From sequence record LR877332: 64,000 nt of DNA. One strand, given 5' to 3'. Position numbers and translations under genes: made by a program. The notes beneath the pieces are model-generated. The model did not search any database. It saw nothing but the letters and a program-made list of their open reading frames with translations, and was not told the DNA's origin. This DNA comes from Shigella phage vB_SsoM_JK08. Below are positions 56,385 to 63,694 of this stretch, one piece after another. The first letter of the stretch is position 1. Each line of letters begins with the position of its first letter.

Positions 56385-56387
56385 CAA

Positions 56388-56417
56388 TGGGGACCTTTCG
56401 GTCCCCATATTTTTATT
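56388..56417 (+). terminator. rho-independent terminator after gene 54
   Basis: Hairpin TGGGGACCTTTCGGTCCCCA followed by TATTTTTATTT. Confidence 0.65.
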
Positions 56418-56703
56418 TACGGAATGAAATGAAAGCAGCAACTGAAGCAACTAAACTGTCTTCAATATAAACTTCAATTTTTACCGGAGCTTCTGACTCA
56501 AATTTACCTGTTACTACACCCTGAAAAATACTTTCAGTCTGTTCTGGCTTTGAAAAATTTTCAGAAGGAAAAATTCCGAACTTTTTATCTGTTCCAAAAA
56601 TTTTGATAAATTCATCGTAAACTGCTTCATTAAAAGCATTATCAGCAGGAATAACGCCTTCAACTACAAGTTCTTGACCTAAAAAGCGCAAAGAAGATTT
56701 CAT
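56413..56703 (-). CDS. hypothetical protein (alt-downstream ORF)
   Basis: 96 aa ORF directly after the alt paralogs on the minus strand. Confidence 0.55.
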   Translation of the reverse strand: MKSSLRFLGQELVVEGVIPADNAFNEAVYDEFIKIFGTDKKFGIFPSENFSKPEQTESIFQGVVTGKFESEAPVKIEVYIEDSLVASVAAFISFRK

Positions 56704-56763
56704 TTTGTGTTCCTCATGTTATGTCAGTAAGACTACTATAACACAACACGAGGGACTTGTAAA

Positions 56764-58821
56764 CTACATCTTGAACTTTTTAGACATTCCGTTGATGTTA
56801 ACCAAAGAAGCTAAGATTTGAGAAACTTCGTTTTCCTCTTCTTTTGATTCTTCTACAAGGAATTGATTAAATCCAGCCATTGGACGAACTTCACCAGTTT
56901 CCATCAAATGATCGCCATCATATACTGATTCTTCTAATTGCTCAGAAGGAGGAACGATTGTACCTTCGATTAGATACTTGTTATAAGCAGTTTCTTTCAT
57001 AAAGTAAGTACTTACTTTATTAATCTTCAGTAAAATTCCACGCGGTAGAATAACTTCAGCTTCTGATGGAAATCCTGATAAATGACCCGGAACGATAACT
57101 TTGATTCGCTCAGCTCCTTTAATTACCATACCCACGCTAGTTTCAGCATCTTCATTAGCATATGTAGAATGACTACCCATATGCATCAAATCTTCTGCAT
57201 CAACGGAACCTTCTCCTTCACCAGAAAATACTGCACCGGAATCATCTAGAGCCATATAGTTTTTACCATGCTCGCCGAAGATATTTGGTTTAAGCGATGT
57301 AGATACGAAGTTCTTGAAATAGAACATTTTGTTTTCAATGTTATGACGCAAAGTTTTAAAGGTAACTTCTTGTCCGCGATAAAGCGTAGTTCCTGGAGGA
57401 AGAACTGAACCTTTAGCGAATGCAGAATCCAACGTCTCGATGTGCTTAATAGCTCGTTCCATATATTCTTCACGGGTAGAATCTGGTTTACCCAAAAGGA
57501 ACGAGTTCATTTCAACATATGAATCTGCACAATAATCTTCAATTACATCAGATTCGGCCTGAGTCAGTCCTTTTGGAGTTACTTCAGTGCTTGCGTATTC
57601 ATATGCCTTGGCAGCAGATTCATTAATCAATTTATAAATGCCATTCATGACAAATTGAATAATAGCTGTCTTTTCATCTGGCGTAGCTTTAGAACCTTTA
57701 ACTAAATCATTAATAATTTTCTTAATAACATCAAAGCTATTAGAAATATTAATGTCAGCAAGATCGCTTAAAATTTTATCAGTTTTATAATCAAAGAATT
57801 CTTTATTCTTTAAATATTCTTGAGAACCTTGATATGTTATATCGCTCTGCAACTTGATAGATGGATCACGTAAACGTGCATGGGCCAATGCAATATGATT
57901 TCGGAAGCTTTCTAGTTCATAATCGTTAGATTTAAAACGAGAAGCACTTCTCATACCACCGATAGCTCCTTTGCTGAAGTTTGAACCAATCTGGATAACG
58001 CCAGAGTTCATCGGACCTTCTGCTTTATATACCGGAACTTTAGATTCAAACTCTTGATATTTCTTAGCAGCGAAGCTATCACCCTGAAGCGAAGCATCAA
58101 CAGTAGAATATTGAGCTTGTGCTGCTAATCGACGACTAATTTTAGTTTTCTGAATAACAGCTTGGTCCGTGCGCTTATCATTTTCTAAAGCAATAGAAGC
58201 AGCAACAGCAACAGCTTTAGGAACAGCATTTCCTGTTTTAACGTCTACATAAACATCACCGACCTTTGATTCAACTTTTGTGAATAACTCAGTTGAAATA
58301 GGAGGTACACCTGGAATGTCTTCTAAATTGGCATTTTTACGGTAAACCATAATATATGCATACTTTTTATCATAGTCCCAGATTTCCTTTAAAAGAACAT
58401 ATCGACCTGCTCCTTTAGTACGTACTAAACGGTCAGCAATAACTTGCATTTGACGAGCAGCGCCATTTGTTTTACTTTTTAGTACGCGGAATAAGCATGC
58501 ATCAATTTTATACTGTTTCATTGTTTGAAGAGCAGTATCAAAAACAGCGTTAATGACGCCAATTGGATTTCCACCCAAGTTTCTAAGTTTAACCAGTGAT
58601 AATTTCTCGTTGACACCTATCATTACGATATGCATCATTTTATCGCCCGGCTTAACGTTTTTATTTGTATCACCTCCAGAGGTGTATGTACAAAATCTAA
58701 ATCCAGGAAGCACGCTTTCTTCGCCGGCTTGAATAGCAAAAATTTGAGGTATTTTATGCTTAGGATTTAAGTTAACAACCGGCGCCGAAGCGCCGTCAAA
58801 TAATTCTGTAATAAGTTCCAT
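56764..58821 (-). CDS. alt: Alt-family mono-ADP-ribosyltransferase, paralog 1
   Basis: 685 aa (T4 Alt 682); N-terminus MELITELFD; C-terminal ART signature: R in TLYRGQ, STS in FVSTSL, ExE in EAEVILPRG. Confidence 0.85.
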   Translation of the reverse strand: MELITELFDGASAPVVNLNPKHKIPQIFAIQAGEESVLPGFRFCTYTSGGDTNKNVKPGDKMMHIVMIGVNEKLSLVKLRNLGGNPIGVINAVFDTALQTMKQYKIDACLFRVLKSKTNGAARQMQVIADRLVRTKGAGRYVLLKEIWDYDKKYAYIMVYRKNANLEDIPGVPPISTELFTKVESKVGDVYVDVKTGNAVPKAVAVAASIALENDKRTDQAVIQKTKISRRLAAQAQYSTVDASLQGDSFAAKKYQEFESKVPVYKAEGPMNSGVIQIGSNFSKGAIGGMRSASRFKSNDYELESFRNHIALAHARLRDPSIKLQSDITYQGSQEYLKNKEFFDYKTDKILSDLADINISNSFDVIKKIINDLVKGSKATPDEKTAIIQFVMNGIYKLINESAAKAYEYASTEVTPKGLTQAESDVIEDYCADSYVEMNSFLLGKPDSTREEYMERAIKHIETLDSAFAKGSVLPPGTTLYRGQEVTFKTLRHNIENKMFYFKNFVSTSLKPNIFGEHGKNYMALDDSGAVFSGEGEGSVDAEDLMHMGSHSTYANEDAETSVGMVIKGAERIKVIVPGHLSGFPSEAEVILPRGILLKINKVSTYFMKETAYNKYLIEGTIVPPSEQLEESVYDGDHLMETGEVRPMAGFNQFLVEESKEEENEVSQILASLVNINGMSKKFKM

Positions 58822-58824
58822 GAT

Positions 58825-60876
58825 TTATCCTTGAACGAACTTGTAAGGCATGTTTGCAATATCTATGCAAGACGCAATAATTCCAAGAGATGATTCTACT
58901 TTCTGTTTAACATTTGATGAAACAAATGATGCAAAGTCAACTCTATCTTCTATATCACCTGTCATTGTAACTACTTCGCCGGTTTCCATTAGACGGTCAC
59001 CGTCATAAATTACCGATTCGGTGAGTTCTTCTGTGGTCATAACTTCAGCTTGAATAAGCTTGTTGTTAGTTTTAACTGTTCCATCATTGTAAGATGCATC
59101 GGTTATTTTATTAACTTTGACCATTAATCCACGTGGCAAAATGACTTCCATTTCATTTGAAGGTGCTAAACTTCCACCTGGTAAAACAACATTGACTTTA
59201 TCAGCCCCAGTAATAACCCATCCAATTCCAACTAAATTATCGCTAGAATTTACTAGTCCTTCATCAGTTTTATCAATAGAAACACTTAAACGCTTTTCGT
59301 CTGGTAAAACACCCACAGATGAATCAGTCATCCAGGTACCAAAAATATTTGGATATAATGATGTTGACACAAAATTTCTAAAATAAAAAACTCGATTTTT
59401 TACCAGTGCTTCATATATTGAAGGTAACATTCGTTGTGAACGATACAAAGTAATACCTTTTGGTAATCGTTCACCATTTTTAAAGGCAGAATCTAAATTA
59501 TCAATAGCTTTTTCTATATCAGATGCTGTCAAAATACTTGTACGCTCATCTGGATTATATAATCCCAAAAGAGCGTTATTTATGTCTACATATCCTGAAC
59601 TTACGTATTCACGAATTCCGCGTTTTTGTGCCGGTGTGTATTTAGATGAATCTTTATTTTCGACTATAGGATGTAGTGACCATCCAGCGGTAAGAGCATA
59701 TCCACGCAATTCTCTTCGAATAATCTTTGTTTTTATTGCATTCCAAGAATTTTGTACTAACTCATTCGCAGCATCTTGATTTAAATGCGAATGCTTGTTA
59801 ATGTTTCTTTCTAACCAAGCACCTTTATATTTTTCTAAAGTATCATCAACTATAGAAGCAATAGTTTCTAAAGTTTTTATTGAAGTAATAGATTCTTTTC
59901 GTAATCTTTCTAAAGCTTTATTTTTTATTTCTGCATTAACATCAGATTCTTTATCTTCAGGAATTATAGAAGCTTCTCTGAATGCCATTCCAGCTGTAAC
60001 ACTACTAAGAGCATTCTCTAATGCAAATCCTGAAGTAGAAATAACAGTTAATTCATTAGCGTCAGAAATTAAAGGAGCGTCAGCAGGTTTATTTAATTCT
60101 GCTGCTGAAGCCTCAAATTTTTGAAACATCGGCGTTTCAAATCTAGAAGATTCCAATGATTGACTTTGCGCAATTGCTCTACGGGAAATTTTAACTTTAA
60201 CGATTACAGCTTGGTCAGAACGTTTATCATTTTCTTGCGCAATAGATGCTGCAATTGCCTCATTTTTAGTTACTTGAGCTCCAGTATCTTTATTGATATA
60301 AACATCACCGACCTTCGATTCAACTTTAGTAAAGAGCTCGGTACTAATTTCTGGAACTCCTGGAATGTCTTCTAGTGATACATTTTTGCGATGTATAAGA
60401 ATATATGCATACTTTTTATCATAATCCCAGAGTTCCTTAAGAAGGACGTATCTGCCACCTGAACGACTACGGATAAGTCTATCAGCAATAACTTGAATTT
60501 GTCGAGCTTGACCAGCGGTTTTAGACTTAAGAATACGGAGCATACAAGCATCAATTTTATATTGACGCATTGTTTGCATTGCAACAGTAAAAACTGAATT
60601 GATATAATTAATTGGGCTTGGCCCAAGACCTTTCAATTTAGCAATTGAACCTTTAGCGGTTAATGTAAAAGGAACAATATGCATCATTTTATCGCCCATT
60701 TTTAAATCGCGATTAGTATCACCTCCAGATGTATAGGTACATAAACGAAAGCCTGGTTGTTCAATTGCATCATCAACATGAACTGAAAAAATTTGCGGTA
60801 TTTTCTTCTTTGGATTTAAGTTTGTAATCGGAAGAGTAGTATCTTCGTCAAATAATTCTGTAATAAGTTCCATCAT
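58825..60876 (-). CDS. Alt-family mono-ADP-ribosyltransferase, paralog 2
   Basis: 683 aa; N-terminal region closely similar to paralog 1, central region divergent; ART signature: R in TLYRSQ, STS in FVSTSL, ExE in NEMEVILPRG. Confidence 0.85.
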   Translation of the reverse strand: MMELITELFDEDTTLPITNLNPKKKIPQIFSVHVDDAIEQPGFRLCTYTSGGDTNRDLKMGDKMMHIVPFTLTAKGSIAKLKGLGPSPINYINSVFTVAMQTMRQYKIDACMLRILKSKTAGQARQIQVIADRLIRSRSGGRYVLLKELWDYDKKYAYILIHRKNVSLEDIPGVPEISTELFTKVESKVGDVYINKDTGAQVTKNEAIAASIAQENDKRSDQAVIVKVKISRRAIAQSQSLESSRFETPMFQKFEASAAELNKPADAPLISDANELTVISTSGFALENALSSVTAGMAFREASIIPEDKESDVNAEIKNKALERLRKESITSIKTLETIASIVDDTLEKYKGAWLERNINKHSHLNQDAANELVQNSWNAIKTKIIRRELRGYALTAGWSLHPIVENKDSSKYTPAQKRGIREYVSSGYVDINNALLGLYNPDERTSILTASDIEKAIDNLDSAFKNGERLPKGITLYRSQRMLPSIYEALVKNRVFYFRNFVSTSLYPNIFGTWMTDSSVGVLPDEKRLSVSIDKTDEGLVNSSDNLVGIGWVITGADKVNVVLPGGSLAPSNEMEVILPRGLMVKVNKITDASYNDGTVKTNNKLIQAEVMTTEELTESVIYDGDRLMETGEVVTMTGDIEDRVDFASFVSSNVKQKVESSLGIIASCIDIANMPYKFVQG

Positions 60877-60896
60877 AGCCTCTCTAGTGTTTATTC

Positions 60897-60904
60897 TATT
60901 TATA
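60897..60904 (-). promoter_or_regulatory. late promoter TATAAATA for the alt paralogs
   Basis: Minus-strand TATAAATA about 21 nt upstream of ATG 60876, directly after a hairpin. Confidence 0.55.
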
Positions 60905-60926
60905 AAATTAAAGGCCCGAAGGCCTT
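60905..60926 (-). terminator. stem-loop / weak terminator
   Basis: Hairpin AAAGGCCTTCGGGCCTTT followed by a short U-run on the minus strand. Confidence 0.4.
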
Positions 60927-61114
60927 TAATAATCTAGTGGTAAGAGAGTACGGTATATTTCAAACTTTGGACCTTTTTCATAGGCATCAAATGTTTCTGT
61001 GAATTTATTATAAGCGTATGCATCTACAAATTCGAGAATGACTTGTGATACAGAAGTAGAAACATCTCCACCTTCTTTTTGAGCAATGACAATTGTTTCT
61101 AAGTAAGCTTTCAT
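60926..61114 (-). CDS. hypothetical protein
   Basis: 62 aa ORF with ATGA overlap to the ligase gene stop. Confidence 0.5.
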   Translation of the reverse strand: MKAYLETIVIAQKEGGDVSTSVSQVILEFVDAYAYNKFTETFDAYEKGPKFEIYRTLLPLDY

Positions 61115-62574: not shown

Positions 62575-62840
62575 TGTTCATCCTTTAGAGTTTGGTTTAC
62601 AGCTCTATTATAAATCAATTCATCATTAAGCTCAGTCAAAGACCTGTGGTACGTGGTTCTAACTTTATTTCCTTGCATCCAGTGCTTGACGTAAATGAAA
62701 CCTTGCTCTACACATTTTTTAAAAATTCGTTCGTCTTTTTGAGCTCGGAATTCTGGATTGCATCTAAAAAATTGATTTACGTGACCGTAATCACGTGTAG
62801 TATTACCTTCATTTTCATAAATAGTGTGAACAACAAACAT
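62571..62840 (-). CDS. 30.1: hypothetical protein (30.1-like)
   Basis: 89 aa ORF overlapping ligase start. Confidence 0.6.
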   Translation of the reverse strand: MFVVHTIYENEGNTTRDYGHVNQFFRCNPEFRAQKDERIFKKCVEQGFIYVKHWMQGNKVRTTYHRSLTELNDELIYNRAVNQTLKDEQ

Positions 62841-63694
62841 TAGAATGCTCCTTGGAAAATATTATCACCACTACCACTAGTAAGTCTATTAAAATACCCT
62901 GCGTCGCCAGGCTTAATATAACTCCACGTATGGAATGGATGCATCTGATGTGAGTGTGTATAATATGGATGATATGGATTATAAGGATTAAATCCAGGAG
63001 TTCTCCAAGTAGTGTTCCAACGAAAAGAATCGTTTTTAATCATCTTCTCAATTACATCTTTTATAACTTTTTCACTATCAAAACTTTCTTTATTTTCCTT
63101 CGATGGAAAAAGCTTATTCTCTACATCATTCCATGTATAAACTCGCTGTGCAGTTTTTGGAATACTGTCACGTTCCCCTCGAGCCATCCAATAAACAGGA
63201 ACATTTAATATTTCACTTGCGTGATCGCAGTGGTGAGCGAGATCGTCAATATAACAAATTACGTTATATTTTTCTTTTGCCTTTTTGAACAACTCTTCTT
63301 TTGAAGAATCATGACCACACATCAGTACTTCTGAGAAGGCACCAGGAAAAAGAGCATTCAAATTAAATTGACGATTCAGCAGAGCGTCAATAGAATCACC
63401 CAATGCTGTAACAGCTACAAAATTATAATCTTCTTTTAATTTGTTAATTACACACAGGGCATCTTTATATGGAGACAAGTATCGAATAAAATCCGAACGA
63501 TTGTATTTTTCAATTAGCTTAACGCCAAGTTCTTCATCGCAATTAAATAGTTTACCAGGAGAAATAAATTTCTCATCCTGGATCATTTTTAAAATATGTT
63601 CTAACGGAAGATTATATTTCTGAGCAAAATAAGGAAGGCCTGATTGCCAGCTTAAACATACTCCATCAATATCAGTTAAAATAGTAGGCTTCAT
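62840..63694 (-). CDS. 30.2: HAD-superfamily-like protein (30.2-like)
   Basis: 284 aa; N-terminal motif ILTDIDGV resembles HAD motif I (hhhDxDG). Confidence 0.65.
   Translation of the reverse strand: MKPTILTDIDGVCLSWQSGLPYFAQKYNLPLEHILKMIQDEKFISPGKLFNCDEELGVKLIEKYNRSDFIRYLSPYKDALCVINKLKEDYNFVAVTALGDSIDALLNRQFNLNALFPGAFSEVLMCGHDSSKEELFKKAKEKYNVICYIDDLAHHCDHASEILNVPVYWMARGERDSIPKTAQRVYTWNDVENKLFPSKENKESFDSEKVIKDVIEKMIKNDSFRWNTTWRTPGFNPYNPYHPYYTHSHQMHPFHTWSYIKPGDAGYFNRLTSGSGDNIFQGAF

Follow-up and report, generated by a model that had tools for sequence, protein, structure and literature searches.

A predicted second Alt-family ADP-ribosyltransferase, Alt.-2, encoded in tandem with Alt in Shigella phage vB_SsoM_JK08

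The alt and alt.-2 genes

Shigella phage vB_SsoM_JK08 carries two tandem genes of the alt family, alt (copy 1) and alt.-2 (copy 2), on the minus strand of the stretch of DNA analyzed here (64,000 nucleotides, nt, of sequence record LR877332; hereafter the window, to which positions refer unless another locus is named). The first, alt (58825..60873, stop codon included), encodes 682 amino acids (aa) when counted from the second of two ATG codons, and alt.-2 (56764..58821, stop codon included) encodes 685 aa beginning with MELITELFD. An earlier note on this DNA had described two full-length tandem open reading frames (ORFs) of 683 and 685 aa, and both were recovered with exactly those coordinates, the 683-aa version of alt being the one read from the upstream ATG (58825..60876, start MMELITELFD). 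The real start of alt is probably the second ATG at 60873, because it is annotated in this way in Escherichia phage a15 and in the RefSeq entry of T4, and because the spacing of the Shine-Dalgarno sequence GAGAGG (60880-60885), which lies 6 nt before this ATG, fits. The gap of 3 nt that had been noted between the two genes was likewise found, with the TAA of alt at 58825-58827 and the next ATG at 58819-58821.

The two proteins are paralogues with 41% identity over their full length (BLASTP, E 1e-158), and they are thus not mere duplicates distinguished by sequencing noise. The product of alt is 99% identical to T4 Alt, and judged by this identity it is a T4-type Alt, an NAD+ (nicotinamide adenine dinucleotide):arginine mono-ADP-ribosyltransferase; alt.-2 is predicted to encode a second full-length ADP-ribosyltransferase (ART) of the Alt family. 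A global alignment showed that the similarity is distributed unevenly, with about 67% identity in residues 1-237, 10-20% in a gap-rich stretch from residue 238 to about 430, and 20-53% in the C-terminal ART part, so that the similar N-terminus and divergent middle proposed from first inspection hold in the pairwise comparison. The segments between the STS and ExE motifs of the ART part also differ between Alt and Alt.-2, in indels as well as in composition.

In the local Pfam scan, PF03496 (ADPrib_exo_Tox) was the single family matched by either copy, at 120.9 bits for copy 1 and 72.0 bits for copy 2 against a gathering score of 23.4. The profile phrog_802 matched copy 1 over its full length with an E value of 1.3e-262, and copy 2 with an E value of 2.9e-256 (residues 1-685 of 685, profile positions 2-674 of 674). 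A further family, PF26846 (Tevenvirinae_ADPRT), is assigned through proxies only, as a precomputed match of the 99%-identical protein P0001 and of the genes called in the loci L009-L011. The catalytic motifs (aromatic-Arg, Ser-Thr-Ser, and Glu-x-Glu) are LYR478, S503-T504-S505, and E574-M-E576 in copy 1 (minus-strand codons of R478 at 59440-59442, S503 at 59365-59367, E574 at 59152-59154, and E576 at 59146-59148), and LYR482, S507-T508-S509, and E587-A-E589 in copy 2 (R482 at 57376-57378, S507 at 57301-57303, E587 at 57061-57063, and E589 at 57055-57057).

A family alignment of 21 sequences, the most distant at 43% identity, has no substitution of the Arg, of either Ser, or of either Glu, and the Thr is close to invariant. 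R / STS / ExE can also be traced through 11 paralogues belonging to Tequatrovirus, Dhakavirus, and a divergent relative; in the Dhakavirus orthologue of copy 2, the R and the ExE are retained, and STS is replaced by S-A-S. The PF03496 scores and the invariant family columns bear out the claim that the R / STS / ExE signature is intact in both copies, and the alignment check found no catalytic residue lost in either. In R-S-E mono-ADP-ribosyltransferases, the ExE motif implies arginine specificity. The E577A variant of T4 Alt (683-aa numbering, corresponding to E576) is catalytically dead (PMC11404850). The ART fold is present in the predicted model of copy 2; by sequence, copy 2 gave nothing at E <= 0.01 against all chains in the PDB, and its fold was reached via this model.

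Both proteins can be divided into an N-terminal module, a variable body, and a C-terminal tail, all encoded on the minus strand. In Alt, the alpha/beta module of aa 1-237 (60163..60873) includes the ITE-6 site (E6 codon at 60856-60858) and is followed by the variable body (59017..60162), which comprises a helical central region (about aa 238-410) and the ART domain (about aa 411-619) and ends at the LTE-619 protease site (59017-59019); the 63-aa tail (58828..59016) has a low predicted local distance difference test (pLDDT) score and is the equivalent of the T4 propeptide. The corresponding parts of Alt.-2 are the N-terminal module of aa 1-237 (58111..58821; ITE-6, with the E6 codon at 58804-58806), the variable body (56929..58110), with a helical central region of about aa 238-420 and an ART domain of about aa 421-631, ending at LEE-631 (56929-56931), and a tail of 54 aa (56767..56928), a putative propeptide that aligns to the propeptide of T4 Alt and contains a conserved YDGDHLMETGEV motif.

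AlphaFold models were obtained from shallow alignments of 20-21 sequences, with mean pLDDT values of 73.7 (copy 2) and 68.1 (copy 1). In each model, an alpha/beta module extends to about residue 215 and an all-helical region to about residue 410-420; the ART domain comes next, its insert between STS and ExE being of low confidence, and the C-terminal tail is disordered. In the model of copy 2 the pLDDT falls below 50 at residues 629-663, with disorder in the vicinity of residue 631. The central region of both models consists of 7-8 helices in matching order, and the central regions of Alt and Alt.-2 are therefore predicted to share an all-helical architecture; the idea that they adopt different folds is unsupported by these models. 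The divergence of the central regions that the earlier note had put forward thus holds in sequence (10-20% identity) and not in the predicted fold, for which the models give the same all-helical plan.

What is known of T4 Alt allows the two ends of Alt.-2 to be read more closely. T4 Alt is an internal head protein, present in about 40 copies per head and ejected with the DNA (PMC9958956, PMC9026906), and has Arg265 of the RNA polymerase alpha subunit as its main target (PMC2988021); what the earlier note had said of its packaging, injection, and action on host proteins is thus in line with published work. The prohead protease gp21 trims T4 Alt after ITE-6 and LTE-619, and 63 C-terminal residues are lost (PMC5694885). 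The Alt.-2 start, MELITE|LFD, is identical to that of Alt and retains ITE-6, and the gp21 motif (L/I)-x-E is found at both ends of Alt.-2 (ITE-6 and LEE-631) in aligned, family-invariant columns, to be read as presence of the motif only. A YDGDxLMETGE motif follows LEE-631, in which Y634, D635, G636, D637, E641, G643, and E644 occupy invariant columns. The identical start, LEE-631, and this conserved motif suggest that Alt.-2 would be packaged and processed like Alt.

Distribution of alt.-2 and exchange of alt cassettes

A region of 4.9 kb is 100% identical to Yersinia phage PYps5T and to Escherichia phage a15, both members of Tequatrovirus, and in a15 both genes are annotated as "Alt-like RNA polymerase ADP-ribosyltransferase". 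Copy 2 is the alt.-2 of RB32, RB14, T2, and T6, where it is intact between alt and alt.-3, at 98.5-99.3% amino-acid identity (RB32 99%, T2 99.1%, T6 98.7%). Within the phage collection, 402 records contain copy 2 at an amino-acid identity of at least 80%, with about 400 at 90% or above and 396 at 95% or above, and at the DNA level the whole region is covered to 80% or more in 390 of the 529 records with a match; these counts represent identity bands in that collection, the related loci in IMG/VR (n=5) being too few for a census. Alt itself is dimorphic in the genus, with a T4 type (at least 90% identity; about 174 records) and a 697-aa RB32 type (about 320 records) that is about 71% identical to the T4 type. 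In the window, alt.-2 stands beside the T4-type allele, whereas in RB32, T2, and T6 it stands beside the 697-aa allele. In RB32, RB14, T2, and T6, alt.-2 is annotated as "Alt-like RNA polymerase ADP-ribosyltransferase" or as [quoted passage not shown].

An intact alt/alt.-2 pair is the norm of the genus and has already been annotated, with laboratory T4 as the exception. The pair is known from GenBank and RefSeq (a15, RB32, T2, T6, and hundreds more) and from the paralogy note of Nolan et al. 2006, and since it is annotated in public genomes, its detection here is confirmatory. Modest comparative results that may be new, all described below, are the position of the deletion in T4, the chimeras that occur in nature, and the cross-genus pattern of frame plus cassette.

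T4 encodes two small ORFs at this position, alt.-1 (61 aa) and alt.-2 (67 aa), which match aa 1-56 and 62-117, respectively, of copy 2 in colinear order; they were recorded as paralogous to alt by Nolan et al. 2006, who also noted a full-length duplicate in phage 44RR (PMC1524935). A blastn comparison with the window revealed that T4 (NC_000866) is without 1,699 base pairs (bp) that are bounded by a 9-bp direct repeat, ACTTTTTAG; its upper copy at 58474..58482 and its lower copy at 56775..56783 (both plus strand) form the deletion endpoints and leave a 9-nt overlap at the junction. The T4 remnant also carries a frameshifting indel. The small ORFs alt.-1 and alt.-2 of T4 are the remnant of a full-length gene after a deletion between these 9-bp repeats. 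Given that direct repeats flank the missing segment and that the alt.-2 body has a full-length orthologue in Dhakavirus, we reject both the partial duplication of the T4 RefSeq entry ("old duplication of the first part of alt") and the insertion in alt.-2 of the RB32 and T6 database wording in favor of a deletion in T4. The deletion was re-checked on wild-type T4 NC_000866, since the T4 clone behind locus L002, MZ375356, is a deletion mutant from the laboratory, its 30.2 having only 109 aa, and does not represent the wild type outside the alt region. Gene 30.2 of the window (62840..63694, minus strand) encodes 284 aa; its counterparts in wild-type T4, T2, and T6 have 278-281 aa.

The ratio of nonsynonymous to synonymous substitution rates (dN/dS), calculated by the method of Nei-Gojobori, is low for alt.-2 in every comparison: 0.025 against RB32 (51 synonymous and 5 nonsynonymous differences), 0.020 and 0.041 against two IMG/VR orthologues, and 0.12 against an orthologue of 74% identity. 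For comparison, the value for T4 Alt against the Alt of the window is 0.05. This shows that alt.-2 is under strong purifying selection and as constrained as Alt itself.

Dhakavirus carries three tandem alt genes at the same locus (phage UGJNEcP3, locus L015, 2861-9124; phage 04086, locus L014, 7097-13648), alt arrays of 1-3 genes being found among the phages compared, and the array of UGJNEcP3 has the same 3-nt spacers. As in the window, these triple arrays lie between ligase/alt.1 and alt.-3/gene 54 and end in a copy with a body orthologous to that of alt.-2; they differ from the window in having three genes rather than two, and in their genus-specific N-terminal modules, which are 42-47% identical to the modules of the window. 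The alt.-2 body is 46% identical to the last Dhakavirus copy in the central region and 57% in the ART domain, versus 15% and 35%, respectively, to the Alt of its own genome, and each body lineage is conserved across the genera at 46-65%. The N-terminal modules behave differently: they are 68% identical among Tequatrovirus paralogues and 52-97% among Dhakavirus paralogues (67-89% within UGJNEcP3), and 40-47% between the two genera. The central and ART body of alt.-2 is, on these sequence comparisons, the orthologue of the last Dhakavirus copy. Because the alt.-2 body is nearer to that copy than to the Alt of its own genome, the two body lineages separated before the split of Tequatrovirus and Dhakavirus, with the N-terminal modules clustering by genus.

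Exchange of bodies appears at several levels. The T4-type and RB32-type Alt proteins have N-terminal modules that are 100% identical and tails that are near-identical, with divergent middles in between. The second gene of the 04086 array (L014, 9001-11082) is about 92% identical to its Dhakavirus counterpart in nt 1-700, 83-94% identical to the alt of Tequatrovirus RB32 (locus L003, 904-2997) in nt 1200-1900, and 96-100% identical to the Dhakavirus counterpart again from nt 1900 onward, a pattern that points to a recent exchange of the catalytic cassette between the genera. In the same array, the first alt copy has an unrelated C-terminal tail without the YDGD...METGE motif, and the third is annotated with an N-terminus that is shorter and of different sequence (MPIFILK...), perhaps owing to a wrongly assigned start codon or to truncation of the gene.

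Two metagenomic contigs carry a single chimeric alt gene between alt.1 and alt.-3 (L010, 5001-7055, Logan SRR24155011; L011, 5001-7061, Logan SRR19633722), in which the 5' part is 100% identical to Alt and the remainder 97-100% identical to Alt.-2. The switch points differ, at nt 546-558 in L010 and nt 657-669 in L011, and the chimeras are thus best read from their sequences as two independent unequal crossovers between the tandem paralogues. Overall, the N-terminal module and C-terminal tail appear to form a constant, genus-specific frame around an exchangeable cassette, which is made up of the central and ART body. Two explanations may apply to the frame, namely homogenization within each genome and co-adaptation to the capsid core of the respective phage.

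Expression signals and neighboring genes

The T4-type late promoter consensus TATAAATA at 60897..60904 (minus strand) is the sole one upstream of alt and alt.-2; it has no other minus-strand match within 10 kb, in agreement with the single late promoter that had been claimed for the pair, and the motif is enriched in the window, with 23 occurrences against 9.7 expected. A sigma-70 promoter scan of both genes was at background (20 promoter-like sites versus 18.8 expected), and two terminator-like matches inside the coding sequence of alt and alt.-2 are weak and were not taken as internal signals. At the junction of the two genes (58822..58832, minus strand), the sequence AAGGA (58828-58832) overlaps the stop codon of alt and stands 6 nt upstream of the alt.-2 ATG, which follows the stop codon after 3 nt; this layout would fit translational coupling.

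Upstream of the pair lies alt.1 (60926..61114, minus strand; 62 aa), with a match to PF24647 ("Phage_blade"; E 1.9e-29), the stop codon of which is contained in the hairpin AUUAAAGGCC-UUCG-GGCCUUUAAU (60907..60930, minus strand). This hairpin has 10 bp, is followed by UUUUAU, and folds at -13.5 kcal/mol (z = -3.3); it is absent from the output of the consensus terminator scan. It is the probable terminator of the upstream gene 30/alt.1 transcript, directly before the late promoter.

Directly after the stop codon of alt.-2, and upstream of alt.-3, is an early-promoter-like site, TTTACA-17-TATAGT (56735..56763, minus strand), with 10 of 12 consensus matches and a TG present, to be read as a consensus match only. 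The gene alt.-3 (56413..56703, minus strand) encodes 96 aa of DUF5498 (PF17602, E 1.4e-64) and is the constant downstream neighbor of every alt array examined (L009, L010, T2, T6, a divergent relative, and Dhakavirus). Between alt.-3 and the convergent gene 54, the strong hairpin ATGGGGACC-GAAA/TTTC-GGTCCCCAT (56387..56408, both strands; 9 pairs, 6 of them G-C) is likely a bidirectional terminator. The position of the pair between alt.1/DNA ligase and alt.-3/gene 54, on the ligase strand, is conserved as in the T-even Alt family.

Proposed role and comparison with known systems

With a probability of roughly 0.6, we propose that alt and alt.-2 form a late operon of two genes whose products are effector enzymes packaged in the head and injected, and that Alt.-2 is most likely a second arginine ADP-ribosyltransferase with host targets different from those of Alt. 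The late TATAAATA promoter would give one transcript through both genes, with the ribosome-binding site of alt.-2 overlapping the stop codon of alt. The precursors, with their near-identical start and similar N-terminal module and C-terminal tail, would both be brought into the prohead core by these frame parts, where gp21 would trim both ends, after ITE-6 and after LTE-619 in Alt or LEE-631 in Alt.-2. The mature enzymes of about 68-70 kDa would then remain in the head, enter the next host with the DNA, and each mono-ADP-ribosylate arginines with NAD+, as R-S-ExE enzymes do. In the last step, Alt would modify RNA polymerase alpha Arg265 and other host proteins, and Alt.-2 most likely a different or partly overlapping set of host proteins. 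The first four of these steps (transcription, packaging, trimming, and delivery with catalysis) are derived from homology and motif conservation, and the fifth, concerning the targets, is more tentative. It is suggested by the unrelated look of the central helical region and the different active-site loops, and by the long-term maintenance of two distinct bodies, with their differences concentrated in the central segments and those flanking the active site. The expanded or split target range that the earlier note had suggested is favored by the purifying selection on alt.-2 and by the old, separate body lineages.

Several points weigh against this proposal. A literature search returned no functional or experimental work on Alt.-2, with "alt.-2" appearing in a single relevant paper, as a one-line mention of paralogy, and no virion proteome mentioning Alt.-2; its packaging, cleavage, injection, activity, and targets are all features that we infer. 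Co-transcription from one promoter is likewise deduced from the absence of other signals, and the shared central architecture draws on secondary-structure patterns in models of moderate confidence. Since T4 does not require Alt and grows well despite its alt.-2 deletion, a benefit of alt.-2, if any, must be conditional. The natural single-gene chimeras, moreover, show that either body is dispensable.

A tentative extension of the proposal, to which we give serious but less than even credence, is that the alt locus of T-even phages is a recombining array of injected effectors, with cassettes swapped both inside a genus and between genera and with the genus-specific frame fitting any cargo to the capsid core of the phage, in which Alt.-2 represents an ancient lineage with a target of its own other than RNA polymerase alpha, which may be a defense or stress-response protein. 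In this extension, the target would have escaped notice because the phage used as the model, T4, has naturally lost alt.-2 by deletion.

Alternatively, Alt.-2 could be a redundant second dose of Alt that acts on the same targets, chiefly RNA polymerase alpha Arg265, and that is retained solely because it increases or safeguards the injected activity. The two share family, catalytic motif, operon, and processing motifs, and L010 and L011 carry only the Alt.-2 body and T4 only that of Alt; with T4 and the chimeric phages single-bodied, each body alone seems enough for a viable phage. However, the bodies share about 15% identity in the central region and 35% in the ART domain, yet each is conserved across genera at 46-65% and under purifying selection, and a lasting maintenance of two distinct lineages is unexpected if dosage were all that counted. 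The two proteins also differ, by indels and in composition, in the substrate-facing segments that lie between STS and ExE, and, as Alt is non-essential, viable single-gene phages reveal little about targets. We therefore regard redundancy as unlikely.

An anti-defense effector, acting on a host immunity or toxin protein instead of on the machinery of transcription or translation, and with the cassette swaps as the trace of an arms race, would be a special case of the different targets proposed above. Cross-genus cassette exchange, the dimorphism of Alt, and arrays of 1-3 genes resemble conflict-driven diversification, and the neighbor alt.-3 yields mutants with a C-terminal extension that escape the CmdTAC defense system in T4 (PMC11618068). 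Against this stands the great uniformity of alt.-2 (396 of about 402 records at 95% or above; dN/dS 0.02-0.04), which speaks against ongoing diversifying selection, and no defense target is indicated by the present data; in this specific form the idea appears improbable. A further possibility, namely that copy 2 is a duplicate in decay or serves mainly as a structural core protein with catalysis that has become irrelevant, would agree with the loss of alt.-2 from T4 without obvious cost and with the wording of the T4 RefSeq entry, in which alt.-1 and alt.-2 are what is left of a partial duplication in the distant past, but it is very improbable indeed, and a pseudogene is rejected, given an ORF intact in hundreds of genomes, a dN/dS of 0.02-0.04, R, STS, and ExE in invariant or nearly invariant columns, and a Dhakavirus orthologue that keeps R and ExE.

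Alt is a textbook case of a phage enzyme injected with the DNA for host reprogramming, and the experiments on it were almost all performed in T4, which is a natural deletion mutant of the sister enzyme Alt.-2. Most wild relatives, including T2 and T6, have a gene under strong selection for a second enzyme, which they would probably inject as well, and the target of Alt.-2, once identified, would widen the view of immediate host takeover. The plan of frame plus cassette also suggests that parts of Alt could be used for loading foreign enzymes into T4-type heads.

Compared with T4 Alt, copy 2 has in common the N-terminal module, the helical middle, the R-S-ExE ART domain, the C-terminal tail, both gp21 motifs, the locus, and the operon; it differs by an identity of 41% overall and of about 15% in the central region, and by other insertions between STS and ExE. 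Paralogues are likewise recorded in 44RR and RB49. The bacterial ART toxins of the R-S-E clade (Vis, C3, iota/CDTa/CPILE-a, VIP2, and Certhrax) have a sequence identity of 14-27% to the Alt proteins, which carry about 400 additional N-terminal residues; these toxins are delivered by secretion or through a binary-toxin pore, whereas the Alt family is delivered by the phage head.

A further comparison can be made with polymorphic toxins and with effectors fused to MuF, of which head-packaged MuF-ART fusions are known (PMC9503650). Unlike the MuF effectors, Alt and Alt.-2 are without a MuF domain in the Pfam scan, and their frame also includes a C-terminal propeptide. The locus contains no immunity gene, as there is no ORF in the 3-nt gap and the small neighbors are only the conserved alt.1 and alt.-3, and for want of a cognate immunity gene we do not class it as a polymorphic toxin system. 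The resemblance would instead be one of evolutionary behavior rather than of membership, in that all of these systems have a constant frame and an enzymatic portion that is swapped, occur in tandem arrays, and recombine within the conserved portion.

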